This document shows positions 928 to 58,917 of a DNA stretch of 64,000 nucleotides, in pieces. Numbering within the stretch: the first letter of the stretch is position 1; the number at the start of each line of letters is the position of its first letter. The stretch lies in the NCBI GenBank assembly GCA_013334825.1, contig JAAXWR010000002.1, positions 34,025 to 98,024 of the forward strand. The letters are read 5' to 3'. Source of the DNA: Candidatus Yonathbacteria bacterium (lineage in GTDB: Bacteria > Patescibacteriota > Minisyncoccia > Phycocordibacterales > JACNGX01). Both the position numbers and the translations under genes were made by a program. The notes under the pieces are model-generated. The model was not told the DNA's origin and did not search any database. It saw only the letters and a program-made list of their open reading frames with translations.

Positions 928-3693
928 ATGGAACAAGGCACGATTGAACGGCAACATTTTACTAATCCTGAAGAAGAGATTGCGTTTTTGCGTAGGCAAC
1001 TTGCTGAACGTGAGTCGTCACTAGAACGCCCTGCGTCTCCTGAAGAACGTGAACAATTTGCTGAAGAAACAGTACGCGCGTATGAAGCGCTTCCTGTTGA
1101 GGAAGTCATTCTCCCCGAACAACGCATGACCCCTGAAGAGACAGAGGGAATTGTGCTTGAGTTATCTCCTGAAAACCATGATAAAACAATGGAAGATTTA
1201 CTCGGTTTTATTATCGAAAAAGGACTCAAAAATACCTTGGGTATTGTAGAGCGCATGAACAACCCGCATATCGCTGATGATTTTCATCGCTTTCTCGTAC
1301 AATATATTCGTCATACACCCGAGTTACCTGATGTTCGTCGTGATGTACGTCTCAAAAAAGCACTTCATATGTGTTTGTATGAAGTAACACTTCCTGATAT
1401 CGGTACACGTGAAGAAGGAAATAAAGCATTTAAAGAAATTATTTCATCTATGGAACAGTTTTATGCGGGCATGATGTCAATTTCCGAAGATAAAGAACCA
1501 ATCCCAGGGAAAGATTTTTTCTCCATAGAAATAGCACAATCCGATGCCCGTTCCGATGTCGTGTTTTATGTTTCCGTACCGACAGAAAAAGCGCTCATGT
1601 TTGAAAAGCACATGGAAGCCGTTTTTCCAAAAGCACGTATTGAAGAAAACAAAGACGACTATAATATTTTTAGTGAAACAGGTGCAGCGGCGGGTGCATG
1701 GGCGCGTCCATCGCGAAGTTCTGTCTTTCCTATTCGTACGTATGACGCATTTGACCATGACCCGCTTGATATCATATTAAATAGTTTTTCTAAGCTCAAA
1801 AAAGATGGTGAAGGTGCCGCAATACAGCTTGTTGTCTCGCCCGCGGGGAATACCTTTGTGAAGCGATACGGGAAGGCACTTGATGATATTCGTAAAGGTG
1901 TGTCAGTAAAACACGCGACTGATGTTCCCCGTGATTTAGGTGGCGATGTTGCCAAAGGTCTCAAGGAAGTGGTGCTCGGTAAAGGACTTCCCAAGAAGCA
2001 TGAAGATGGTATGAAGACGCCTGAAACGGATCAGTCAGCAGTTGAACAGATTTCCAAAAAAGTAGAAAGCACTATTTTTGATACTAATATACGTCTTGTC
2101 GCATCTGCGGAAACAGTGGCGCGCTCAGAGGCAATTCTCGCTGATTTGCAGTCGTCTTTTCATCAGTTTACAAACGCGCAAGGAAACGGTTTTGTGTTTG
2201 TGCGTGAACAAGGACGTGCGCTCAATCGTCTTATCAATGAATACACCTATCGTACATTTGACACGAGTGAGAGCTTTCCGCTCAATCTGCGTGAAATGAC
2301 AAGTATTATACACATGCCTGCGCATCAAGAGAATGCACCGCTGTTGAAACGTGCAAAAGCAGGGAGCGCGCCTGCTCCCATGGAACTTGGAAATGAGGGG
2401 ATTGTGCTCGGAGTCAATCGGTATCGCGGAGATACTAAAGAAATTCGTATGTCACCCGAAGACCGTTTGCGCCATTTCTATGTCATTGGACAGACGGGTA
2501 CTGGTAAAACGACCCTGCTCAAAAACATGATTGTGCAGGATATTAAGAATGGTGATGGTGTGTGTATGATTGATCCGCATGGCTCGGATATTCAAGATAT
2601 TCTTGGACAGATTCCTCCTGAACGCGCCAAAGATGTGATTTATTTTGACCCTGCATATACTGACCGACCGATGGGACTTAATATGCTTGAATATGACACA
2701 CGTTTTCCTGAGCAAAAGACATTTGTCGTGAATGAACTGTTGGCTATTTTCAAAAAATTGTATGGTGCGGTGCCAGAAAGTATGGGTCCTGCATTTGAAC
2801 AGTATTTTCGTAATGCCACGATGCTTGTGATTGAAGATCCTGCAACGGGTAACACACTGCTTGATGTGTCGCGCGTACTTGCTGATGCGAATTTCCGTAA
2901 ACTAAAATTGTCGCGGTGTAACAACCCTATTATTGTGCAATTCTGGAGAGAGATTGCGGAGAAGGCAGGAGGGGAAGCATCTCTTGCGAATATTGTGCCG
3001 TATATCACCAACAAGTTTGACGTCTTTCTCGCGAATGAAATTATGCGTCCGATTGTCGCGCAAGAACATTCTGCGTTTAATTTTCGTGAAGTGATGGATG
3101 GGCGTAAAATTCTTCTCGTCAATCTTTCAAAGGGACGACTTGGAGATGTGAATGCGAACCTCATCGGTCTTATCATTGTGGGCAAAATCTTGATGGCTGC
3201 ACTTTCGCGTGTGGATACTGTAGGACGCGAAACACCCCCGCCGTTTTATTTGTATATTGATGAATTTCAAAATATTACCACCGATTCTATTTCCACGATT
3301 TTGTCTGAGGCACGTAAATACAAATTGTCGCTTACGATTGCACATCAATTTATTGCACAATTAGAAGACAATATTCGTGATGCGGTGTTTGGTAACGTGG
3401 GGTCGCTCGGAGTGTTTCGTGTAGGAACAGAAGATGCGGAGTTTTTGGAAAAACAATTCGAACCTGTCTTTTCGGCGACGGATATTATCAAAATCGACAA
3501 CAGAAATGCATATATGAAAATGCTTGCCGATGGTCGTCCTGTGAAGCCATTTAACATGGAAACACTTGCTCCCGCGGTACCGCGTGTGGATTTGGCAGAC
3601 AAAATTAAAGAGTTGTCATATTTGCGATATGGGCGTGATCGTGCCGAGGTGACAGAAGAGATCATGCGGAAGTATAGAAAAAGCGAAGCATGA
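928..3693 (+). CDS. Large P-loop ATPase of the TraD/TraG/VirD4 (type IV coupling protein, FtsK/HerA superfamily) type, with an uncharacterised roughly 500-aa N-terminal region
   Basis: Walker A 'VIGQTGTGKTT', Walker B-like 'FYLYIDEFQN', and the overall C-terminal architecture resemble T4SS coupling and DNA-translocating ATPases. I take the start at ATG 928 (MEQGTIERQHF), downstream of the repeat block. Confidence 0.65.
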   Translation: MEQGTIERQHFTNPEEEIAFLRRQLAERESSLERPASPEEREQFAEETVRAYEALPVEEVILPEQRMTPEETEGIVLELSPENHDKTMEDLLGFIIEKGLKNTLGIVERMNNPHIADDFHRFLVQYIRHTPELPDVRRDVRLKKALHMCLYEVTLPDIGTREEGNKAFKEIISSMEQFYAGMMSISEDKEPIPGKDFFSIEIAQSDARSDVVFYVSVPTEKALMFEKHMEAVFPKARIEENKDDYNIFSETGAAAGAWARPSRSSVFPIRTYDAFDHDPLDIILNSFSKLKKDGEGAAIQLVVSPAGNTFVKRYGKALDDIRKGVSVKHATDVPRDLGGDVAKGLKEVVLGKGLPKKHEDGMKTPETDQSAVEQISKKVESTIFDTNIRLVASAETVARSEAILADLQSSFHQFTNAQGNGFVFVREQGRALNRLINEYTYRTFDTSESFPLNLREMTSIIHMPAHQENAPLLKRAKAGSAPAPMELGNEGIVLGVNRYRGDTKEIRMSPEDRLRHFYVIGQTGTGKTTLLKNMIVQDIKNGDGVCMIDPHGSDIQDILGQIPPERAKDVIYFDPAYTDRPMGLNMLEYDTRFPEQKTFVVNELLAIFKKLYGAVPESMGPAFEQYFRNATMLVIEDPATGNTLLDVSRVLADANFRKLKLSRCNNPIIVQFWREIAEKAGGEASLANIVPYITNKFDVFLANEIMRPIVAQEHSAFNFREVMDGRKILLVNLSKGRLGDVNANLIGLIIVGKILMAALSRVDTVGRETPPPFYLYIDEFQNITTDSISTILSEARKYKLSLTIAHQFIAQLEDNIRDAVFGNVGSLGVFRVGTEDAEFLEKQFEPVFSATDIIKIDNRNAYMKMLADGRPVKPFNMETLAPAVPRVDLADKIKELSYLRYGRDRAEVTEEIMRKYRKSEA

Positions 3694-3933
3694 ATCAAGA
3701 AGCACGAAGCAAGAATAAACGATGAAGGGAGGGAATAGAAGTTGGGAACATGGAGAAAGAATGATTTCTCAGACATCCGCACGACACGGATGCGGTTCTC
3801 AGAACAAGTAGCGTCTATTTTTTAAGAACTACGAACTACGAACTAAGAACTATGTAGGGTGTATGGCAAGCTTCCAACTCATATGCTATGATACCGGCAT
3901 ATTTATCCGTTATTTCACCAGAGTATTTTACAT

Positions 3934-4542: not shown

Positions 4543-5086
4543 AAGAATAGAAAACAATTATAAACAACAACGGGACGGGGCGAAAGCCCCGTCCCGTATT
4601 CGTATGTTCCCTGTAGCACGTGGGGTGCAGGGCAAGCGTACAAGTTCGTACTTCGTAGCCCGTCTCTAGTACAGCGTAGGGTGCAGGGCAGGGCGTAATT
4701 TTTAATTCAGCATTCATAATTTATACACAGTTTCCTTTTTCTCATGTTGTATCGTGTGTTCGTTCTACGAACTAAGAACTACGAACTACGAACTTGTGTT
4801 CGTCCATGTTCCACTACACCAACTTTTCTCATGCTTGTCATGCTTGCGTATCTTTTTTCGAGAATTATACTGATAGGGGGTTGCTACGGGTATTTTCTAG
4901 GACAAATCGTTTTTTCAGGGAGTCCGATGTTACTGCGCGCTTTGGTGCGTATGTTCAGGACACCCACCTGGCAATACGCTAGGGAATGCCCGGTTTATGC
5001 AACCCCTCAAAAGTCGTCCATCGTTCTTTCCAAGAATGCTGGACGTTTTTTGTTTGTTCTTTTCTTTCCTGTGATATACTTGTTGT

Positions 5087-7534: not shown

Positions 7535-8119
7535 ATGAACGATCTCGACCGTATTGCTGACGATATTCGTCTCTGTCACAAATGCCCATTGGCACAGACA
7601 CGCATATGTGCTGTCCCAGGAACAGGAAGTGGAAAAAGCGATATCGTCTTTATTGGTGAAGCTCCTGGTGCGCGTGAAGACCGTGAAGGATTGCCATTTA
7701 TTGGTGCTGCGGGGAAATTTCTTGATGAAATGCTTGCGGATATTGCGCTCTCTCGTGCCGATGTGTTTGTTACGAACGTCGTGAAATGTCGTCCACCGGA
7801 CAACCGTGACCCGCTTCCTGAAGAAGTGCGTATCTGCACAGAAGCATATCTCTGGAAACAGTTGGAAGTGCTCAAGCCAAAACTTCTCGTGCCACTTGGT
7901 CGGCATGCCATGCACCGTTTTCTCCCAGTAACAGAAAAAATAAGCGAGATACACGGCACGCCTGTTGGTATTACAAACCCTCTGTCAGGAGAGAAATATG
8001 TTGTTCTTCCGCTCTATCACCCCGCGGCAGCGCTCTATAACGGGAGTATGCGGGAAGTACTCAAGCGTGATTTTCGCGAAATACCGAAGATGATTGAAAA
8101 GATGAAATATGAAAAATGA
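7535..8119 (+). CDS. udg: Uracil-DNA glycosylase family 4 (Fe-S type)
   Basis: Motifs 'CHKCPL…', 'GEAPGAREDREGLPFIGAAGKFLDEML' and 'VVKCRPPDNRDP' match family-4 UDG. Confidence 0.85.
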   Translation: MNDLDRIADDIRLCHKCPLAQTRICAVPGTGSGKSDIVFIGEAPGAREDREGLPFIGAAGKFLDEMLADIALSRADVFVTNVVKCRPPDNRDPLPEEVRICTEAYLWKQLEVLKPKLLVPLGRHAMHRFLPVTEKISEIHGTPVGITNPLSGEKYVVLPLYHPAAALYNGSMREVLKRDFREIPKMIEKMKYEK

Positions 8120-8317
8120 AATATGTATAAAAAAGCGCACGAACTGCCGCCCGCACTTTTCCTGAGTAAAAAGGGTAATAATTTCCTAGTCATCCGTAGG
8201 ATCAATCAGAATATATTATAATTATAAAAAATCACATGTATTATTTGTGTATTATTAGATTTTTACTTTTTTGGTTTGAATATGAACTAATTGAGTGGCG
8301 CCATCTGACGCCTTTTT

Positions 8318-14187: not shown

Positions 14188-14605
14188 TGGTGGAGATGGG
14201 GGGTATCGAACCCCCGTCCAAACGTGGTTTGCGAGTGGGTCTACGCGATGTAGGTTGTTTTTTGGATTTGAACCGATTGTTTTTGAAACAAACAAAACGA
14301 CAATCAGTCGAGTTTCGTCGATTCTCGAGCGTCTGATGAAACGGTCAGATGCTCCAGTCCGATGAGTATGACACCCTCTCAGACATATCGGACGTCAGAA
14401 GAGAGGACGCCGCTTAGGCGAATCGAGACACGAGGTCTTGATTAGGCGAAAGCGGGAGCGAAGGACGGTATTCCAAAGTAGGAAGAGGCAATACCTTTTG
14501 CTTTAAGAGACAAGTTCGCACTTATCGTTTGTGACGGTTTTACGAGTCATCACAGCTCGATCGCGCGCACGGGCAGAGACACGCCTGTCGAAGCCGATCA
14601 TCCCC
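14188..14605 (-). ncRNA. ssrA: tmRNA (ssrA), standard one-piece, 418 nt
   Basis: Minus-strand 5' end 'GGGGAUGAUCGGCUUCGACAGGCG' matches the conserved tmRNA 5' acceptor strand and GGnUUCGAC element. The 3' end 'GGACGGGGGUUCGAUACCCCCCAUCUCCACCA' has a T-arm, a 7-nt acceptor strand complementary to the 5' end (one G·U pair) and an encoded CCA, followed by a terminator. The gene lies immediately downstream of and co-oriented with smpB. A candidate tag ORF after '…CUCUUAAA' is GCA AAA GGU … GCC UAA, giving AKGIASSYFGIPSFAPAFA*. The tag is low confidence. Confidence 0.7.
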
Positions 14606-20499: not shown

Positions 20500-20690
20500 G
20501 ATATATTTTTTATTTTATCTTTTTGCTTTTTATAGTTCATAGTTTATCGTTTATATTTTTCTTTTTATAGTTTATCGTCCATTATTTTTAATTTTAGTTT
20601 TTATTTTTTCTTTTTATAGTTTATCTTTTTTATTTTATTTTTTATTTTAAAAAAGTTATCCACATTTTTTTCAAAAAAAATATTGTCATC
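20500..20690. repeat. AT-rich imperfect tandem repeats (units like CTTTTTATAGTTTATCGT) in the upstream region of the histone-like gene
   Basis: Several repeated units are visible. They are in reverse-complement orientation relative to the R4 purine-rich word repeat seen elsewhere. Confidence 0.6.
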
Positions 20691-25293: not shown

Positions 25294-25557
25294 AGAGAGA
25301 AGAAGTATGTGGTAGCACATAAAAGAAATAATTTCTTTTGCGCATCTTGTACACCCTCTACAGAAAGTTCTTAGTTCGTAGTTTGTAGTTCTTAGAGCGA
25401 CGGACGACGACTTGTGGGATTTTTGTTTTTAGTTTTTTATCGTTTGTCGCTTATAGTTTTCTTTTCGATATTTCATATTCCTCATCTATTGTTTGTTTTA
25501 TCAACAGAAAAAAGAAGAAGAGTGCGCGTGAACATGTTATGATAGAAGTATTATCAA

Positions 25558-28004: not shown

Positions 28005-28340
28005 ATATGAAAAGTAAATGCGGAACAAACGCGGAAGCTCGCGGAACGGACGCGGAAGAAACAAGAAGTATGAATCACGGAATGAGAATTAAGCTCGCCC
28101 TGCACCCTACGTTGCCTGCTGTGCATCCTACGTGGCTTGCTGTGCATCCTACGTGGTGCACAGTGCATAGTGCTGGGGAATATACGAATGATGAAGAAAA
28201 AAGGTAGACGATGAAATAAGAAAATAGAAATATGAAGACGAAAACTATAAATGGTAAAAAGAAAAAATAAAAATGGTAAACTATGAACTATGAAAAACAT
28301 ACTAAAAATAAAAGCGGACATAGTGTCCGCTTTTTCTGTG
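28005..28340. repeat. Composite intergenic repeat element (copy A). Order: 'gcggaa' words, a multi-hairpin block (CCCTGCACC-CTACGT-…GGTGCA…), 'acgaa' words, a purine-rich R4 block (GATGAAATAAGAAAATAGAAATATGAAGACGAAAACTATAAATGGTAAA), and a bidirectional terminator AAAAGCGGACA-TAGTG-TCCGCTTTT at 28309-28336
   Basis: The same modular order recurs at 41777-42115 and 56207-56530. Partial versions occur at 600-880, 4600-4700 and 31310-31560. Confidence 0.7.
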
Positions 28341-31303: not shown

Positions 31304-31563
31304 ATATAGGAAAGAGGTTAGAGGTGATAGGGGCGGACAGGAATGTAGGAGAGAGGTTATAGGTTATAGGGACGAACACTCGAATCAAGCGTGCCCTGCA
31401 CCCTACGTGGTGCAGGGAATTAAGGGTTACGAAGTGCGAACTTGTATGCTTGCCCTACATTTCGCGTGGTGCTAGGAAACACACTTGAAACGGGACGGGA
31501 ATCAAAAGATATGAAATCAGGAATATGCTGTGTATCAAATAAAAAACCGCACGACAGTGCGGT

Positions 31564-32865: not shown

Positions 32866-32985
32866 GAGATTAGGAGATTAAACGCTAGGAGATTAAAACG
32901 AAAAACGATAAACGATAAAAAGAAAAAGCCTCGAGCATGACTTGTCGTGCTCGGCTAAAACAAAAAAAAGCGACCGTGAGGTCGC

Positions 32986-33957: not shown

Positions 33958-35373
33958 ATGCCGTATCGTCCCGTTATTGGACTTGAAATACATGCAGAAC
34001 TTCATACACAGACGAAGATGTTTTGTGCGTGCAAGAATGATGCTGAGGAGACGCGCCCAAATGTAAATATTTGCCCTGTGTGTATGGCACACCCGGGTAC
34101 TCTTCCGGTGATGAACAAGAAGGCAGTGGAGCACGTACTTCGTGTGGGGACAGCTGTTGGGGGAATGCTCGCAACACAGTTTACCGAATTTGACCGTAAA
34201 AATTATTTTTATCCCGACATCCCAAAAGGGTATCAGATAAGCCAATACAAATATCCACTGGTATCTGGAGGGATACTTGCTGGCGTAGAGATTACACGTA
34301 TTCATCTTGAAGAAGATACCGCGACGTCTAAACATAATAAAGGCGATTATTCCCTGATTGATTATAATCGCGCGGGAGTCCCTTTGATGGAGTTGGTGAC
34401 AGAACCAGTGATTGCGGATGCCGAAACAGCGATGCGTTTTGCAAAAGAGCTTCAACTTCTCTTGCGGTATTTGGGCGCGAGTGAGGCGAATATGGAAAAA
34501 GGGCAAATGCGCGTAGAAGCAAATATTTCTGTATATAAAGAAGGTGATGACCGCCTGTCCGGCACCAAGGTAGAAGTAAAAAATCTTAATTCGTTTCGTG
34601 TGGTTGGGAAAGCTATCGCGCATGAAATTGAACGTCAAATCACAGTAATTGAACGTGGTGAGAAAGTTGTACAAGAAACACGCGGATGGGATGAAAATAA
34701 AGGAGAAACATTTTCTCAGCGCAAAAAAGAATCTTCACATGACTATCGGTATTTCCCGGATCCTGATTTGCCGAAACTTGATATTTCAGAAATCACAGAA
34801 TTTGCGACATTTGTTCTTCCTGAATTACCGTGGCAGAAACGCGAACGGTATGCGCGAGAGTATGGCATTAAGGCAGAAGATATTGAAAGTTATGTTACGG
34901 ACACGATCCTCGGTGCATATTTTGAACGCATTGCAGACATTCTCGAAGGGGATACGCAAGCTGTCTTACTTGCATCCAATTATATTACGTCTGATATCAT
35001 TGGGCTTATGCAAGTCTCGGATGGGGACATATTGAGTCGGATTACGCCCGAATCACTTGCGTCGCTTGTTGGTATGGTTGCTGGTGGGGAGGTTTCGTCA
35101 CGTGGAGCAAAAGATATATTGAAAGTGATGTCAGAACGCGGAGGAGACCCTCGAATGATTGCGAGTGAGCACAATCTTTTTCAAAAGAGCGACACAGAAG
35201 CACTTGGCGTTATTGTTGATGACGTGATTGCTGGTAATACACAAGCTGTTCTTGAATATCGTGCGGGTAAAATCGCATCACTCCAGTTCTTGATAGGGCA
35301 AGGAATGAAAGCAAGTAAAGGCTCGGCAAATCCGTCAGTCCTTAAGGAACTATTTGAAGAGAAATTGAAATAG
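33958..35373 (+). CDS. gatB: Asp/Glu-tRNA amidotransferase subunit B
   Basis: 'MPYRPVIGLEIHAELHTQTKMFCAC…' and the rest is canonical GatB. Confidence 0.95.
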   Translation: MPYRPVIGLEIHAELHTQTKMFCACKNDAEETRPNVNICPVCMAHPGTLPVMNKKAVEHVLRVGTAVGGMLATQFTEFDRKNYFYPDIPKGYQISQYKYPLVSGGILAGVEITRIHLEEDTATSKHNKGDYSLIDYNRAGVPLMELVTEPVIADAETAMRFAKELQLLLRYLGASEANMEKGQMRVEANISVYKEGDDRLSGTKVEVKNLNSFRVVGKAIAHEIERQITVIERGEKVVQETRGWDENKGETFSQRKKESSHDYRYFPDPDLPKLDISEITEFATFVLPELPWQKRERYAREYGIKAEDIESYVTDTILGAYFERIADILEGDTQAVLLASNYITSDIIGLMQVSDGDILSRITPESLASLVGMVAGGEVSSRGAKDILKVMSERGGDPRMIASEHNLFQKSDTEALGVIVDDVIAGNTQAVLEYRAGKIASLQFLIGQGMKASKGSANPSVLKELFEEKLK

Positions 35374-39628: not shown

Positions 39629-39820
39629 ACGAAGTTTCAAGTTGTTAGTTTCAAGTTGCTAGATTGGTTACGAAGTACGAACGAGTACGAACATACGAAC
39701 ATAAACTCACCAATATAGTTGTCCATGTTCAGTAGCGTTCGTATGTTCCCTAAACCGCGTAGGGTTCAGGGCAAGCGTATAAGTTCGTACTTCGTAATCT
39801 AATATTATTTACTGTACTAT

Positions 39821-41776: not shown

Positions 41777-42115
41777 GGAATACGAATGTAGGAAATAGGT
41801 TAGAGGTGGTAGGGACAGATATTCGAATCAAGTGTGCCCTGCACCCTACGTGGTGCAGGGAATCATGAAGCAAGAATACGAGAGGCGAATAAAAAAAATA
41901 TGAGCATACGAATAACGAATGTGTACGAATATACGAATGACAAAGAAACGATAAATTATAAAAAAAACTATAGACAATGAAATAAGAAAATAGAAATATG
42001 GGAAGAGAAAACTATAAATGGTAAACGATAAAAGAAAAGAGTCGTATTCGTACATTCGTACGTATTCGTTATTCGTAAGCATTCTTGAAACTTGCAACTG
42101 ACAACTTAAAACTCG
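41777..42115. repeat. Composite intergenic repeat element (copy B)
   Basis: Contains 'ggttagagg' words, the palindrome CCCTGCACC-CTACGT-GGTGCAGGG (41837-41860), 'acgaata' words, and R4 'GAAATAAGAAAATAGAAATATGGGAAGAGAAAACTATAAATGGTAAACGATAAA'. The module order is the same as in copies A and C. Confidence 0.7.
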
Positions 42116-53808: not shown

Positions 53809-54108
53809 GTGTATGCTATACTATCGTCCATGGACACAGACGCAATGAAACGACTGGCACTTCTCTGTCGTATTGACATGTCGGAAGAAGAATTGGAAAC
53901 ACTCCGCGCGGAAATGGAGCATATTCTCGGTTATGTTGAAAAGGTGAGTGAACTTGCGCCTGCTGAGCGAGCGCTTGAAGTAGGAGTCCATCACAATGTC
54001 ATGCGTGAAGATGGTACTCCGCGTGCGAGTGGTATGTATACGGAAGCACTTCTTTCTGCTGCTCCAGCACGGGAAGGTGATTTTATTCGTGTCAAAAAAA
54101 TTCTCTGA
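53809..54108 (+). CDS. gatC: Asp/Glu-tRNA amidotransferase subunit C
   Basis: '…LALLCRIDMSEEELETL…EHILGYVEKV…' is GatC. The stop TGA lies 1 nt before the gatA ATG. Confidence 0.85.
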   Translation: MYAILSSMDTDAMKRLALLCRIDMSEEELETLRAEMEHILGYVEKVSELAPAERALEVGVHHNVMREDGTPRASGMYTEALLSAAPAREGDFIRVKKIL

Positions 54109-54109
54109 T

Positions 54110-55546
54110 ATGGATATACTGCATGCTTCAATCAAAGAATTGCGTACGGCTCTTGATGCGCGGGACATCACCGCAGTCATGATTGCTGAGGCGTTTTTGT
54201 CGCGTATCAAAGAAGTTGATACTGATATACATGCATTTCTCGAACTATACGATGATGTATTGGAACAAGCGCGTCATGCCGACACGTTGATTGCCGCAGG
54301 AAATATCCATCCGCTTACGGGTATTCCTGTCGCACTCAAAGACAATCTGTTAATCGTGGGCAAGCACGCATCATCAGCATCAAAGATTCTTGAAGGATAT
54401 GTCGCGCCATATGATGCGCATGTTATCACACGTCTTAAGGATGAAGGCGCGGTTTTTTTGGGTCGTACCAATATGGATGAATTTGCGATGGGTGGCTCAA
54501 CAGAAAACTCTGCATATGGACCGACAAAAAATCCACACGATATGTCGCGTGTGCCGGGGGGATCGTCAGGTGGGTCAGCTGCCGCGGTTGCCGCGCGCAT
54601 GGCGCCTCTTGCGCTCGGGAGCGATACAGGTGGTTCCATTCGTCAGCCAGCATCATTTTGTGGCATTGTTGGACTCAAACCTACCTATGGTGCCGTGTCG
54701 CGCCGTGGTGTGATGGCGATGGGTTCGTCACTTGATCAGATTGGTCCGTTTGGACGTACGGTTGCTGATACCAAAGCGTTGTTTGCTTGTATTAATGGAT
54801 ATGATGCTGAGGACAGCACGTCTGTCTCTGAAGAGACTCGTCGCATGATGTGTGGTGATGTTCGTACGACGGGAGCAATGCGTATTGGTGTCCCTGAGTC
54901 ATTTGTGTATGGAGAAGGAGTGGACGAAGATGTGAAAGAAAACTTTCGTGCAACACTTCGCACACTTGAGACGGCAGGACACAGTATTGTTCCCATTGAA
55001 CTCCCTACATTTCCGTACGCGCTTGCTGTGTACTATATCATTATGCCTGCTGAAGTATCGACTAATCTCGCGCGTTTTGACGGTGTGCGTTATGGACTCT
55101 ATGTCTCAGGAAATGATTTACTTGAAGACTATATGAAGACGCGTGGTACGGGATTTGGCAAAGAGGTGCGTCGTCGTATTATGCTCGGGACGTATGTACT
55201 GTCTGCCGGATATTATGACGCATATTACAACAAAGCAAATGAAGTGCGTGAGGCATTGCGTGCCGAATTGGTGCAGGCGTTTAGTGAGGTTAATGTGATT
55301 GCGACACCCACATCACCGACACCAGCATTTCGTATTGGAGAAAAAGCATCCGATCCACTGCAGATGTACTTGGCGGATATCTTTACCGTGCCGGTGAATA
55401 TTGCGGGTGTGCCGGCAATTTCTGTTCCTTCAGGAACAGTGATGCGTGACGGGCAAGCACTTCCGCTTGGCATGCAGTTTATCGCGCCACATTTTGCTGA
55501 AGAGACACTCTTTTCTATTGCGTCAGAAGTTGAACGTCTCGCATAA
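54110..55546 (+). CDS. gatA: Asp/Glu-tRNA amidotransferase subunit A (amidase)
   Basis: Amidase signature 'GGSSGGSAAAVAA…GSDTGGSIRQPA'. I take the start at ATG 54110. Confidence 0.95.
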   Translation: MDILHASIKELRTALDARDITAVMIAEAFLSRIKEVDTDIHAFLELYDDVLEQARHADTLIAAGNIHPLTGIPVALKDNLLIVGKHASSASKILEGYVAPYDAHVITRLKDEGAVFLGRTNMDEFAMGGSTENSAYGPTKNPHDMSRVPGGSSGGSAAAVAARMAPLALGSDTGGSIRQPASFCGIVGLKPTYGAVSRRGVMAMGSSLDQIGPFGRTVADTKALFACINGYDAEDSTSVSEETRRMMCGDVRTTGAMRIGVPESFVYGEGVDEDVKENFRATLRTLETAGHSIVPIELPTFPYALAVYYIIMPAEVSTNLARFDGVRYGLYVSGNDLLEDYMKTRGTGFGKEVRRRIMLGTYVLSAGYYDAYYNKANEVREALRAELVQAFSEVNVIATPTSPTPAFRIGEKASDPLQMYLADIFTVPVNIAGVPAISVPSGTVMRDGQALPLGMQFIAPHFAEETLFSIASEVERLA

Positions 55547-55555
55547 TTTTTTCCT

Positions 55556-56206
55556 ATGGCTGAAACAGGAGGACCATTTATCAATCTTGAATACGTGTTT
55601 TACAAAGTCTACACGTGGATATTTGGTGTACCCTCTGGGACGGGAGAAACAGGAACGTTGGGAGGAGACGGAGGGGCAGGAACGATTTCCATGGGGGACG
55701 GGGGGCTTGTGAACACAGGGAATGGAGTTGATATAGAGATGCTTGTTGAAATATTAAAAAATATTCTTGGCTTTATTACGCTTCTGCTTATTATTGGACT
55801 TGGTTTTATTATTGTACGCATTTGGGAACTTCATAAGGAGATGAAGAAAAAGCCCACATTTGCTGAACCAGAACATGTTGAAAAGACAAAAGAAAATGAA
55901 CGATGGGAAGTCGTCCGCATGCACGTTGCATCGAGCGTTCCGTCTGATTGGCGTATGGCGATTATTGAAGCGGATAATATTCTTGATGACATGGTAAAAC
56001 GTATGGGATACGAGGGAAAAGATTTGGGTGAACGGTTGCGTGCCGTGGAGCCGAGTGATTTTCTGAGTATTCAAAGTGCGTGGGAGGCACACAAGGTGCG
56101 CAACAAAATTGCTCATGAAGGGTTGGGATTTGAGATATCTCAACGCGAGGCAAAACGCGTGATTGATTTATATGAACAGGTGTTTCGGGAGTTTGAGTAT
56201 ATTTAG
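55556..56206 (+). CDS. Hypothetical membrane-anchored protein with a Gly-rich N-terminus, one TM helix, and a C-terminal alpha-helical domain carrying an Rx4H (HEPN-like) motif
   Basis: TM 'ILGFITLLLIIGLGFIIV', and a C-terminal '…SIQSAWEAHKVRNKIAHEG…' with R-x4-H spacing. The HEPN assignment is tentative. Confidence 0.4.
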   Translation: MAETGGPFINLEYVFYKVYTWIFGVPSGTGETGTLGGDGGAGTISMGDGGLVNTGNGVDIEMLVEILKNILGFITLLLIIGLGFIIVRIWELHKEMKKKPTFAEPEHVEKTKENERWEVVRMHVASSVPSDWRMAIIEADNILDDMVKRMGYEGKDLGERLRAVEPSDFLSIQSAWEAHKVRNKIAHEGLGFEISQREAKRVIDLYEQVFREFEYI

Positions 56207-56530
56207 ATGTGAAATGAGAAAATAGAAATGAGGAATATGGGATGGGTTACGAAGTACGAACTTGTACGCTTGCCCTGCACCCCACGTGGCGTGCTGTGCA
56301 TCCTACGTGGTGCATAGTGCTAGGGAACATACGAAACGAGACTAGAAGCAAGAATCAAGAAGCACGAATAAAGAAGAAAACGATGAAATATGAAAATAGA
56401 AATATGAAATATGAAGATGAAAACTATAAACGGTAAACGATAAAATGAAAAAGTTAAAAAAAAGAAAGACAGTGTTCAATACAATGTAAAAAAATAATCC
56501 CGCGGCTTCCGCCGCGGGATTATGAGTTAC
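56207..56530. repeat. Composite intergenic repeat element (copy C). Includes a terminator AATCCCGCGGC-TTCC-GCCGCGGGATT at 56496-56525 that serves the minus-strand gene 56527-56700
   Basis: The module order is the same as in copies A and B. The R4 block 'GATGAAATATGAAAATAGAAATATGAAATATGAAGATGAAAACTATAAACGGTAAACGATAAA' is present. Confidence 0.7.
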
Positions 56531-56700
56531 TTGGGCAAGGGCATTCGGCGCTTTGCAGAAAACCATGCCCAGTATTTACTCATCCCTGTCCCATCAGGAA
56601 CAAGGATATATTTTTCATGGCGCAAGCACCTTGAACAGGTGCGCGTATGACCGGAAGTCATCCAGTCGTGTATCCCAAGAAAACATAAGATTTTTCCCAT
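56527..56700 (-). CDS. Small zinc-ribbon protein (57 aa), phage-type C-x-x-C … CxRCG family
   Basis: 'MGKILCFLGIHDWMTSGHTRTCSRCLRHEKY…'. It is a paralogue of the next small gene (shared C-F-x-x-H-x-[WY] … C-x-[RK]-C-G pattern). Confidence 0.45.
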   Translation of the reverse strand: MGKILCFLGIHDWMTSGHTRTCSRCLRHEKYILVPDGTGMSKYWAWFSAKRRMPLPK

Positions 56701-56730
56701 AATGTAGCTCCTCATGATGTTTTGTTTTAA

Positions 56731-56834
56731 GAAAGAACTAAAACTTTTTGAGTATTCGATTCACAGAGAATCAAATCCTCAAAAAGTTGCCGGAGGAGGG
56801 GAGAAAAAATTTCCTCTCCTCCGGCTGTGGCTAT
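56731..56834. repeat. Direct repeat 1 (about 103 bp): a stop-codon-plus-terminator cassette shared by two minus-strand genes
   Basis: Near-identical to 57105-57207. It contains the palindrome CCGGAGGAGGGGAGAAAAAATTTCCTCTCCTCCGG and ends exactly with the stop codon (cta) of gene 56831-57073. Confidence 0.75.
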
Positions 56835-57073
56835 CCCGGGTTTTCTATTCCTACGCAACGGAACGCCGCTGCAATCTCCTCATGGTGGACATTCTGGGAC
56901 TCCTCCCTGAATGTCCACTTTATTTTTCCACATTTTTCGCAGCGGGACATCACTGCGAATTGTGAAACATGTGCCCTGTAAACGAACGACAAGCGTCCTT
57001 CTATCAGGGCTGGACATTCAAATTTGTCCACAAGAACCCTCTTGGTTTCCGTATATTTGTGTTTAAAACACAT
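56831..57073 (-). CDS. Small zinc-ribbon protein (about 80 aa), paralogue of 56527-56700
   Basis: 'MCFKHKYTETKRVLVDKFECPALIEG…MSRCEKCGKIKW…'. The start is inferred at the internal Met. Confidence 0.4.
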   Translation of the reverse strand: MCFKHKYTETKRVLVDKFECPALIEGRLSFVYRAHVSQFAVMSRCEKCGKIKWTFREESQNVHHEEIAAAFRCVGIENPG

Positions 57074-57104
57074 AATAAGCTCCTTTTTATTATTTTCTTT
57101 TTTG

Positions 57105-57207
57105 AGAAGAACTACAACTCTTTGAGTATTCGATTCACAGAGAATCAAATCCTCAAAAAGTTGCCGGAGGAGGGGAGAAAAAATTTCCTCTCCTCCGGCT
57201 GTGGCTA
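57105..57207. repeat. Direct repeat 2 (about 103 bp), the same stop-plus-terminator cassette at the 3' end of the DEDDh exonuclease gene
   Basis: About 96% identical to 56731-56834. It ends with the exonuclease stop codon. Confidence 0.75.
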
Positions 57208-57723
57208 TTTGACGAGGTGGCGGTACACCGCCGCTGCGACAGCGGAGTCGTAGAGCGGATTGTGTGTCCCGCCCTCAAACTCGCCGACCGATAGTCCGTG
57301 CTTGGCGACAAACTTGTCCACTGAGGTGGGGTCTGCGCCGGCAGCCTGCAGATTTCCGCTGACATCGTAGAGCGGGAACGGGCCGTCCCAGTCCCCGATG
57401 AGGTCAAGCTCATGCATGTCGCGCAAGAGTTTGGCCTCGACGATGTAGCCCATGTGGACCACGACGTCGGCCTCACCCTTGTTCGCCATGTAGAACGTGG
57501 CAAAATCACGGAGCATTGAAGAGTAATCCTCGTGTGTCACCGTGATACCCTGTACCTGGGGCAGGGTGTTCTCACGGCTCCACTGGTCGGTTACAACCGA
57601 TTCAGGAAGCCGCGCCTCAAAGCGGGCGATCTCGACACCGTTCTCGTCGTAGACGAGGGCGCCGATTGCCCACGCCTGTCCCCAGAGACCGTTGGTCTCC
57701 GCGTCAAAAGAAAAAATTTTCAT
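57205..57723 (-). CDS. DEDDh-family 3'-5' exonuclease (oligoribonuclease/epsilon-like), GC-rich
   Basis: Exo I 'FDAETNGL', Exo III 'HNPLYDSAVAAAVY' (H-x4-D). The gene's GC content (about 60%) is clearly above the window average of about 45%. Confidence 0.7.
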   Translation of the reverse strand: MKIFSFDAETNGLWGQAWAIGALVYDENGVEIARFEARLPESVVTDQWSRENTLPQVQGITVTHEDYSSMLRDFATFYMANKGEADVVVHMGYIVEAKLLRDMHELDLIGDWDGPFPLYDVSGNLQAAGADPTSVDKFVAKHGLSVGEFEGGTHNPLYDSAVAAAVYRHLVK

Positions 57724-57929
57724 ATTTCTTTAGTTGTGGCCACATGTGTGACCGTTTTAAAAAATCTTGATTTACTTTTCAAATCCCCTGTGGGTGCAAT
57801 AAGATATCTTTTTCTATTATAGCATATATCACATATATTGTCAATCATTTCTGCTTGCGCTGTTTGGGGTGATGTGGTAATATATTTTTGCAAAGCCGAC
57901 AGGGCTTTTTCATTTATTGATAATCATAT

Positions 57930-58000
57930 AGGGGGGTAGAGAAGTAGTATCTCGGGAGGCTCATAACCTCCAGACCTAGGTGCAATTCCTGGCCCCCCTA
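57930..58000 (+). tRNA. Candidate tRNA with CAT anticodon (Met/fMet/Ile2-lysidine class), atypical T-loop
   Basis: Fold: acceptor AGGGGGG/CCCCCCT, D-stem GAGA/TCTC, anticodon stem GGAGG/CCTCC with loop CTCATAA, T-stem CTAGG/CCTGG with loop TGCAATT, discriminator A. A strong terminator follows at 58008-58045. Confidence 0.45.
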
Positions 58001-58167
58001 CACCCAAACTCAAAAACGACACTATTTGTGTCGTTTTTGAGTTTTAGGGCGCAAGTTGTCTTTTTCCATAATTCATTATTCATAATTCACATCCCGTTTT
58101 CTTGATTCGAATAATGTATTAAGTAAAAGTTGAGTCTTCTTGGGAAAAGTGATATTCTGTAGTCCGT

Positions 58168-58343: not shown

Positions 58344-58603
58344 CGAAGTGGGGCAGAGCATACGTTTATATAAGTATTTTTTCCGCAATATTCCCCCAGC
58401 ACTATGTACCACGTGGATGCACAGCAGGCCACGTGGTTGCACGGCACACTACGTGAGATGCCGGGCAACTGCGTAGTATTTGTGTAAGTTCCGCGTGTTT
58501 CTGCGTTCATTCCGCATCGCTTCCGCGTCATGCAAAACTTGCGTTTCTCCTCATAATATAGTACCCTATGGTGCATCGTCCCAAGTGGGCGAAACACTAC
58601 ATT

Positions 58604-58798: not shown

Positions 58799-58875
58799 GC
58801 GGCCGTGGTGTAGCCCGGTTAACACGTCGCTCTGTCACAGCGAAGATCGCCGGTTCAAATCCGGTCGGCCGCGCA
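58799..58875 (+). tRNA. tRNA-Asp (GTC)
   Basis: Acceptor GCGGCCG/CGGCCGC, D-arm GTGT-…-ACAC, anticodon stem TCGCT/AGCGA with loop CTGTCAC, T-arm GCCGG-TTCAAAT-CCGGT, discriminator G. A terminator follows at 58876-58917. Confidence 0.85.
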
Positions 58876-58917
58876 TAACAAGAAAGGGCTGGCTTTTGCC
58901 AGCCCTTTCTTGTTATG

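Follow-up and report, generated by a model that had tools for sequence, protein, structure and literature searches.

A conserved membrane HEPN-fold gene adjoins a strain-variable, exonuclease-led islet in a Candidatus Yonathbacteria genome

A gene for a membrane HEPN-fold protein beside a gene for an exonuclease mimics a defence island, and the question is whether two such neighbours belong together. We analyzed a pair of this kind in a 64,000-nucleotide stretch of the Candidatus Yonathbacteria bacterium genome (contig JAAXWR010000002.1, forward strand, positions 34,025–98,024), called the window in the following, where the interval 55556–57723 carries four open reading frames (ORFs). A first-pass annotation had located all four correctly and had read them as one GC-rich foreign island, i.e., a candidate defence or phage-remnant module. 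This annotation was supported in part: its sequence-level observations were largely right, the reading as a single module was unsupported. We propose, with a probability of about 0.6, that the interval instead holds two unrelated neighbours, a conserved gene termed tmHEPN here and a strain-variable islet led by the exonuclease gene, and that it is not an anti-phage system. It is the comparative context that removes this false lead. Coordinates refer to the window, and the related loci compared are numbered L001–L072. The features of the interval and its borders are as follows.

53809–54108 (+): gatC (Pfam GatC, 3e-14)
54110–55546 (+): gatA (Pfam Amidase, 1.1e-149)
55556–56206 (+): tmHEPN (protein 1), ORF of 216 amino acids
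56207–56470 (no strand): intergenic spacer of short dispersed repeats (blastn of 56207–56526 against the window)
56494–56523 (−): intrinsic terminator, 13-bp stem followed by T7
56527–56715 (−): orphan small ORF 1, 62 amino acids, or 57 from the probable start at 56700
56720–56834 (−): cassette copy 1, a repeat with two hairpins
56831–57073 (−): orphan small ORF 2, 80 amino acids, with an AAGGAG Shine-Dalgarno sequence
57094–57208 (−): cassette copy 2, a repeat directly after the exonuclease stop codon
57205–57723 (−): DEDDh-fold exonuclease (protein 4), 172 amino acids, by ORF, motifs and fold
57816–57844 (−): sigma-70-type promoter, TTGACA-17-TATAAT with TG, 12 of 12 matches
57930–58001 (+): tRNA-Met, right neighbour of the variable site

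The position of tmHEPN was constant among relatives. It followed pilin genes, ligA, gatC and gatA on the same strand in all five independent loci compared (L005, L007, L009, L011 and L014; protein 45–94% identical), and in all relatives examined it took the slot after gatA. The spacing from gatA is 9 nt in the window; four relatives have 1–15 nt, and L014 has 92 nt. Downstream of tmHEPN, in contrast, every lineage was different. From this constant upstream and variable downstream context we conclude that tmHEPN is a housekeeping gene and not island cargo; it may close a conserved block of patescibacterial genes, ligA-gatC-gatA-tmHEPN. The exonuclease gene was missing beside tmHEPN in L005, L007, L009 and L014, and among about 60 independent exonuclease loci tmHEPN was nearby only in the window's lineage. 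Each gene was hence found without the other, and co-inheritance as a unit was not seen. Relatives thus carry tmHEPN in a core context, which does not hold for the exonuclease islet. As tmHEPN is a core gene, joined to the exonuclease in one lineage only, and no PADLOC model matches, we regard the HEPN gene beside the exonuclease as an accident of adjacency; the four genes do not form one module. The interval had been placed between the gatCAB genes and a tRNA cluster, which is right for the tRNA side. Upstream lie ligA, gatC and gatA, whereas gatB (33958–35373; GatB_N, 6.8e-106) is 20 kb away from gatC-gatA.

Immediately behind tmHEPN the gene content changed between strains. By blastn against relatives, the islet spans about 56.21–57.85 kb, i.e., 1.6 kb between tmHEPN and tRNA-Met, and on its right side homology with relatives resumes at 57834–57853. 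The claim of a tRNA-adjacent variable hotspot was borne out: at the empty site of L014 about 115 nt separate tmHEPN from the conserved tRNA-Met upstream region, and in L005 the site is occupied by two unrelated genes on the minus strand (116 and 290 amino acids). L011, with flanks 87–90% identical in nucleotide sequence, has other cargo, i.e., the exonuclease gene, one cassette and a gene of 397 amino acids that ends at the same terminator. This module of exonuclease, cassette and 397-amino-acid gene recurs in L017 in a different genomic context, where homology ends at the ORF ends. We also noted that these three stand together in at least two unrelated contexts, and that two orphan ORFs replace the 397-amino-acid gene in the window. 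The family of the latter gene (L011 7970–9163, −; L017 5657–6850, +; L032, 528 amino acids; L036, 305 amino acids) gave no Pfam, PHROG, NCBIfam or PADLOC match.

The tmHEPN protein has a conserved FLNxEYxF helix at its N terminus, then a Gly-rich linker that is variable, a transmembrane helix (about residues 66–90) and a C-terminal domain of about 115 residues; the Gly-rich character, the single transmembrane segment and the VRNKIAHEG motif given for it at first reading were all confirmed. The C-terminal domain is a four-helix up-and-down bundle of the HEPN fold. Within it, R182-N183-K-I-A-H187 is a canonical HEPN Rx4-6H motif in which the Arg is followed by a polar residue, and the proposed HEPN assignment was hence right in both fold and intact Rx4H motif. 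Across 27 sequences 43–76% identical to the window protein, R182, N183 and H187 do not vary, and neither do W117, W132, E138, A139, D140, W176, H179, K180 and R201 of the same domain. We found 809 homologues, and those with a named source all came from Patescibacteria. A tmHEPN profile searched against PDB sequences gave nothing significant. tmHEPN is a new family in the known HEPN superfamily, without a family model and annotated only as hypothetical or uncharacterised.

A positively charged stretch after the transmembrane helix would place the C-terminal HEPN domain in the cytoplasm, with tmHEPN as a single-pass membrane protein. Judged from these features, tmHEPN is probably a membrane-tethered, dimeric, metal-independent RNase with a housekeeping role and not a defence effector. 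We compared it within the superfamily with the structures 2hsb (AF0298) and 1wwp and with the HEPN toxins of HEPN-MNT pairs (5yep, 7ae2). Unlike known HEPN proteins, tmHEPN carries a predicted extracytoplasmic N-terminal segment and a transmembrane helix, and unlike known HEPN systems it has no MNT, CARF or other partner. Moreover, it sits in the gatCA operon as a core gene, whereas its HEPN kin are found in toxin-antitoxin or defence loci. Csx28, an accessory protein of type VI-B CRISPR systems with about 200 amino acids, is anchored in the membrane by its N terminus and carries a cytoplasmic RNase-type domain behind the anchor. We take it to be an architectural analogue of tmHEPN, which in contrast has no CRISPR context. 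RNase Y is a membrane-tethered housekeeping RNase that uses KH and HD domains, not HEPN. For a missing RNA-processing activity of the reduced patescibacterial genomes, tmHEPN offers a concrete candidate; a literature search on hammerheads or HEPN in Patescibacteria found nothing relevant.

The islet is led by a protein that the first-pass annotation had called a DEDDh exonuclease, and its DEDDh fold was confirmed. It shows the DnaQ-type RNase H-like α/β fold with an ExoI motif (D7-x-E9) and an ExoIII motif (H154-x4-D159), of which all four residues are invariant in a close clade of 23 sequences. When a family profile was aligned to the PolC proofreading domain, the match covered the entire profile (E = 0.0025) and brought DxE, E96/Asp and Hx4D into register. 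The enzyme would use two-metal catalysis to trim nucleotides off free 3' ends, and since its closest folds are ExoX (4fzx), Pol III epsilon (1j53) and the PolC proofreading exonuclease domain (2p1j), DNA is the likelier substrate. No Pfam, NCBIfam or PADLOC model matched the window exonuclease, and a PHROG match was weak only. Also, 35 family members gave no meaningful match against Pfam, with one each to RNase_T (PF00929, E = 0.036) and Rv2179c-like (PF16473, E = 0.013).

The exonuclease family comprises 559 representatives at 50% clustering, and close copies (65–87% amino acid identity) occur in many classes of Patescibacteria. Window and L011 copies are 91% identical in amino acids and 64% identical at 4-fold degenerate sites, from which we conclude that the gene is under purifying selection. 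In about 60 independent loci, similarity to the window's DNA ends with the exonuclease ORF, and only L011 and L017 have the cassette in common with it as well. In 30 exonuclease loci about 80% of the flanking ORFs on either side were singletons, and no fixed partner gene was found. The first downstream ORF was usually co-oriented and 60–350 nt away. A TrmB-like regulator (9–13 loci), DEAH/HA2 helicases and the 397-amino-acid family recurred as neighbours without being universal, and none of them is in the window. The exonuclease may thus be seen as an accessory gene of a Patescibacteria-wide family with more distant phage members, in hypervariable surroundings and with lineage-specific cargo downstream. 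As to the helicases, HrpA-like proteins of this type lie beside the exonuclease in L052 (5936–8317) and L046 (1443–4814). A C-terminal domain of about 120 amino acids in the L046 helicase (GWVIxxDG...W..I.P.E.vL.W) is also present in non-helicases beside the exonuclease in L018 (5722–7221), L024 and L025.

On the minus strand, a promoter with an extended −10 element matches the sigma-70 consensus at 12 of 12 positions (57844–57816), 93 nt upstream of the exonuclease start. The terminator at 56523–56494 (−27 kcal/mol, z −6.3) is the only terminator-like site of the unit, and L011 keeps it where the 397-amino-acid gene ends. The islet may form one minus-strand unit, i.e., promoter, exonuclease, cassette, orphan ORF, cassette, orphan ORF and terminator. 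In the leader between promoter and exonuclease, positions 57776–57811 (−) gave a sub-threshold match to Rfam CRISPR-DR38 (33.9 vs 44 bits), probably by chance since there is no repeat array.

The two small ORFs have plausible starts: in ORF 1 the likelier ATG at 56700 follows GAGGAG 7 nt upstream, and AAGGAG precedes the start of ORF 2 by the same distance. They had been described as paralogous, phage-type Zn-ribbon proteins with a common C-F-x-x-H…C-x-[KR]-C-G pattern, which we could not reproduce. BLASTP gave no alignment between them at E ≤ 100, neither fits the pattern exactly (CFLGIH...CSRCL vs CFKH...CEKCG), and the link to phages came down to one weak match of ORF 1 to phrog_15926 (E = 0.001). 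ORF 1 has a possible CHCC metal site (C-x4-H...C-x2-C). Neither ORF had a Pfam or NCBIfam match, a tblastn match in 50,697 phage records, or a homologue among 5.8 billion proteins or in related loci. Exact-sequence look-ups with four versions of the small ORFs found none on record, i.e., they were never called as genes. tmHEPN and the exonuclease are identical to the NCBI entries HGB03_02705 and HGB03_02710, and as these locus tags are adjacent, NCBI left both small ORFs unannotated. An origin of the small ORFs as remnants of the 397-amino-acid gene of L011 was ruled out, as no DNA or protein similarity exists.

Each cistron boundary within the unit carries a two-hairpin cassette. The duplication reported earlier was real, with 99 of 104 positions matching (95%) between 56731–56834 and 57105–57207; over the full 115 nt, 56720–56834 and 57094–57208 are 93% identical. 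The window contains these two copies only, with none expected by chance. Each starts at the TAG stop codon of the upstream ORF, and on the transcribed strand the order is stop codon, hairpin B, hairpin A and the Shine-Dalgarno sequence of the next ORF. Hairpin B, GC-rich with 10 bp, abuts the long, AU-rich hairpin A. Copy 1 has hairpin B at 56789–56825 and hairpin A at 56742–56788 (minimum free energy −49.4, z −6.9), copy 2 at 57163–57199 and 57115–57162, respectively (−51.6, z −6.1). Copy 2 is the one common to L011 and L017, and L017 keeps both hairpins though the stem sequence of hairpin B differs. The cassettes, read earlier as terminators, lack the consensus form: a scan for intrinsic terminators did not call them, and the U5 run of hairpin B begins 4 nt past the stem, within hairpin A.

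We propose that the cassettes act as intercistronic RNA stem-loops that would shield the upstream message at its 3' end and reduce read-through. They would thereby uncouple the exonuclease from expression of the cargo, and the duplication of a cassette may date from the gain or exchange of a cistron. Like the REP/BIME stem-loops of enterobacteria, which are mRNA 3'-end stabilisers and partial terminators, the cassettes are stable repeated palindromes right after stop codons, between the cistrons of an operon. Unlike these, the cassette is a composite of two different hairpins and is tied to the operon of one gene family. The 64 kb contain only two copies, and scans of public collections added one more exact match. 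This single match for the exact hairpin A pattern came from JGI metagenomes (same lineage) and none from IMG/VR, which rules out a widespread mobile repeat.

In other lineages a ribozyme fills the slot that separates the exonuclease stop codon from the following cistron. CUGAUGA...GAAA cores were seen by inspection in the 3' flanks of exonuclease copies, and the element in L024 matched the Rfam type III hammerhead (RF00008) over its full length with 40.7 bits (E = 1e-7), below the gathering score of 48.5. Fourteen aligned hammerheads showed 95% pairing with compensatory changes in 12 of 15 pairs, compared with 31–50% pairing in slid controls. With a covariance model, we found 17 hammerheads in 16 of the exonuclease loci searched, in intergenic positions in many Patescibacteria and in one 142-kb viral contig. 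Six lie at most 300 nt downstream and two at most 300 nt upstream of the exonuclease.

Downstream of the exonuclease: L001 6570–6636, L018 5550–5616, L024 5550–5616, L026 5695–5771, L042 2155–2221, L048 5568–5644
Upstream of the exonuclease: L019 4850–4921, L038 4736–4802
Elsewhere in exonuclease neighbourhoods: L023 (two), L032, L037, L044, L051, L065 (two), L072

The six downstream hammerheads, from six other lineages, have a full catalytic core and three covarying stems, whereas the window cassette matched no Rfam family and no ribozyme signature at E ≤ 1. No hammerhead was found in the window (Rfam at E ≤ 1; covariance model R1 at E ≤ 0.1) or, with the covariance model, in five tmHEPN control loci. 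That a self-cleaving ribozyme takes this position elsewhere is our main reason for reading the cassette as an RNA-level boundary element, as such a hammerhead would do the same job. As a side observation, the two hammerheads of L065 (9691–9758 and 10260–10327, −) have the same orientation and are about 570 nt apart. They would free an RNA of about 570 nt with 5'-OH and 2',3'-cyclic phosphate ends. Paired hammerheads of this kind occur in elements that produce circular RNA.

The exonuclease gene was correctly noted as far richer in GC than its background (59.2% vs 43.3% for the window). Across the 64 kb, GC content peaks in a 500-nt segment over this gene (60.8%; mean 43.2%, standard deviation 4.2%), and the gene's GC content at third codon positions (GC3) is 0.744, compared with 0.352 ± 0.068 in 59 other ORFs (z = 5.8). 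This is not the GC-rich island described at first, since tmHEPN has a GC content of 43.8%, with GC3 at background, and the small ORFs are at 46%. In the mean of 23 loci the excess begins and ends at the ORF boundaries, and flanks are at baseline within 100 nt, which rules out a wider island. The gene was clearly richer in GC than its flanks in most of about 50 loci; only a handful failed, counted over 48 of the 49 cellular loci listed and all of about 35 Patescibacteria-type loci with a copy at least 57% identical. Typical excesses were 10 to 26 percentage points, with GC3 of 0.65–0.90 in hosts of 30–50% GC. The excess was strongest in Patescibacteria and smaller, i.e., 0 to 10 points, in phage copies. 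An Actinomycetota copy matches its host of 70% GC, which is compatible with a GC-rich origin of the exonuclease.

Two explanations of the GC3 excess were ruled out. Codon adaptation is contradicted by the ordinary values of L20 (0.435), IF3 (0.37) and GAPDH (0.33); only the 64-codon L33 gene is raised (0.61). A conserved antisense gene overlapping the exonuclease is contradicted as well: many other exonuclease copies do have antisense ORFs, as is expected of GC-rich DNA, but those of the window are interrupted.

The alternative that survives best, and that we still consider unlikely, is a degraded prophage or mobile-element end, with the exonuclease and orphan ORFs as the last genes of an element integrated beside tRNA-Met. 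More distant exonuclease copies (39–52% identity) do occur on viral contigs, two large ones with thymidylate kinase, DNA helicase, GroEL and homing endonuclease among the neighbours. One cultured phage, Fusobacterium phiFN37, has the gene among its early genes beside a CI-like repressor, a Tistrella plasmid has one 34% relative, and the BFVD neighbours of the exonuclease are phage DnaQ/DEDDh proteins. The orphan cargo and foreign composition would also fit, as would the hammerheads that accompany the gene elsewhere, since in bacteria these are typical of phage-derived regions. However, no integrase or recombinase gene is among the ORFs of 56.2–57.9 kb, phage structural and lysis genes are absent, and att-like direct repeats at the islet edges did not turn up in the repeat search. 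The islet moreover lies 5' of tRNA-Met and not at the tRNA 3' end, and the exonuclease has its own consensus promoter and is under purifying selection. Homology in about 30 other genomes does not extend past the ORF ends, and the neighbours there are about 80% singletons and not phage modules. Finally, of 12 pairs outside the lineage, 11 had an identity at 4-fold sites of 0.34–0.52 and one of 0.57, compared with 0.30–0.38 expected from composition. Such near-saturation means that the copies are old and not freshly integrated from one element, and it rules out recent spread from a single source. Of the recent foreign acquisition inferred at first, the foreign composition was upheld.

A housekeeping role for the exonuclease, as an oligoribonuclease or as an RNase T-like trimmer of tRNA 3' ends placed beside tRNA genes for that reason, appears rather less likely still. 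RNase T, REXO2/Orn and Rv2179c (4hec) are among its structural neighbours, the gene adjoins tRNA-Met genes in the window behind a strong promoter, and the protein is 70–87% identical across Patescibacteria classes. On the other hand, it is missing at this site in L005 and L014, its distribution is patchy with hypervariable neighbourhoods, and the other exonuclease loci have no consistent linkage to tRNA genes. In addition, its GC3 is 5.8 standard deviations above the genome's genes, L20 and GAPDH included, and Pfam RNase_T does not match.

With similar reserve we consider a further account that starts from the GC excess. Candidates for the upkeep of a high GC3 in AT-rich hosts are selection on the transcript, GC-biased conversion, and repeated capture from an unseen GC-rich pool. 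The exonuclease could be a long-lived, self-contained accessory gene heading 'punctuated' operons of Patescibacteria, in which its GC-rich synonymous sites would be kept in AT-rich hosts by a force other than recent transfer, the self-cleaving hammerhead or equivalent hairpin cassette would form a 3' boundary, and unrelated orphan genes would be swapped in and out behind it. This force may be selection acting at the RNA or DNA level, or frequent recombination with GC-biased conversion. If true, this would make the operon an integrase-free platform for gene cassettes.

A defence module, in which a membrane HEPN abortive-infection effector works with the exonuclease and small Zn-ribbon proteins, is very improbable: HEPN fold and motif are real, a transmembrane helix precedes the HEPN domain in an architecture resembling that of Csx28, the CBASS-associated exonuclease Cap18 (7t2s) is a structural neighbour and the site is a variable hotspot, but tmHEPN is a core gene whose GC content is that of the background and which stays with gatCA whether the exonuclease is present or not, the two were joined in one lineage only, they lie on opposite strands with a terminator between them, and PADLOC-DB 2.0 gave no match for the four window proteins and the DUF5672 protein (E ≤ 1) or for five companion proteins in relatives (E ≤ 0.1).

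Several observations weigh against our proposal of a conserved tmHEPN gene beside an exonuclease-led islet. The GC3 excess of the exonuclease is unexplained by it. At the ExoII position, where DEDDh families have Asp, the window family has a nearly invariant Glu96 that aligns to the PolC Asp, a conservative change. The small ORFs, without homologues and uncalled by annotation pipelines, may not be genes. The cassettes could act at the DNA level instead, as recombination or operator sites, and with four copies in three close lineages covariation cannot decide between the two roles. For tmHEPN, the comparison with HEPN families upheld the fold, whereas the curated Pfam score was not reached: the nearest model, HEPN_Swt1 (PF18731), gave 15.8 bits (cutoff 27.5), and the domain reaches the gathering score of no Pfam HEPN family. 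We hence predict its RNase activity from motif and fold only. Among the 27 family members, sub-threshold matches were to HEPN_Swt1 (nine), Hypoth_Ymh (three) and HEPN_RiboL-PSP (two), the best being HEPN_Swt1 with E = 0.0049.

The islet brings to light an unmodelled exonuclease family with a GC excess confined to the ORF and a ribozyme or hairpin as 3' boundary. To our knowledge, this combination has not been described for known DEDDh families. Both oddities bear on the persistence and expression of accessory genes in ultra-small bacteria.

Beyond these main features, the left 260 nt or so of the islet consist of short dispersed repeats that are also present at about 13 other sites of the window. 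A 22-nt motif of the spacer 56207–56470, CCACGTGGCGTGCTGTGCATCC, has five matches with none expected. The repeats are modular and intergenic, with a core CTACGTGG(N)TGCTGTGCATCC followed by A-rich tracts of the type GAAATATGAAAATAGAAA, and are scattered through the window at the following sites.

656–879, 3685–3726, 4617–4664, 8097–8125, 20520–20644, 25435–25482, 28114–28280
31389–31459, 32890–32928, 39662–39797, 41974–42038, 56207–56470, 58394–58446

An inverted pair of them flanks 56.28–58.44 kb. Between tRNA-Met and rpmG, a segment of 183 nt with one repeat copy (58354–58537) is replaced by 16 nt in L011, and this presence/absence difference suggests that the repeats are mobile (MITE-like).

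On its 3' side the interval is followed by two tRNA-Met genes, rpmG (L33), tRNA-Asp, a DUF5672 gene and two tRNA-Thr genes. Perfect inverted repeats of 20 and 17 nt, at 58874–58917 and 58006–58044, stand directly after tRNA-Asp and the first tRNA-Met, respectively, and are likely terminators or processing hairpins of these tRNA genes. Elsewhere in the window, a tmRNA gene at 14188–14605 (−) encodes the tag peptide ANLSLKAKGIASSYFGIPSFAPAFA.

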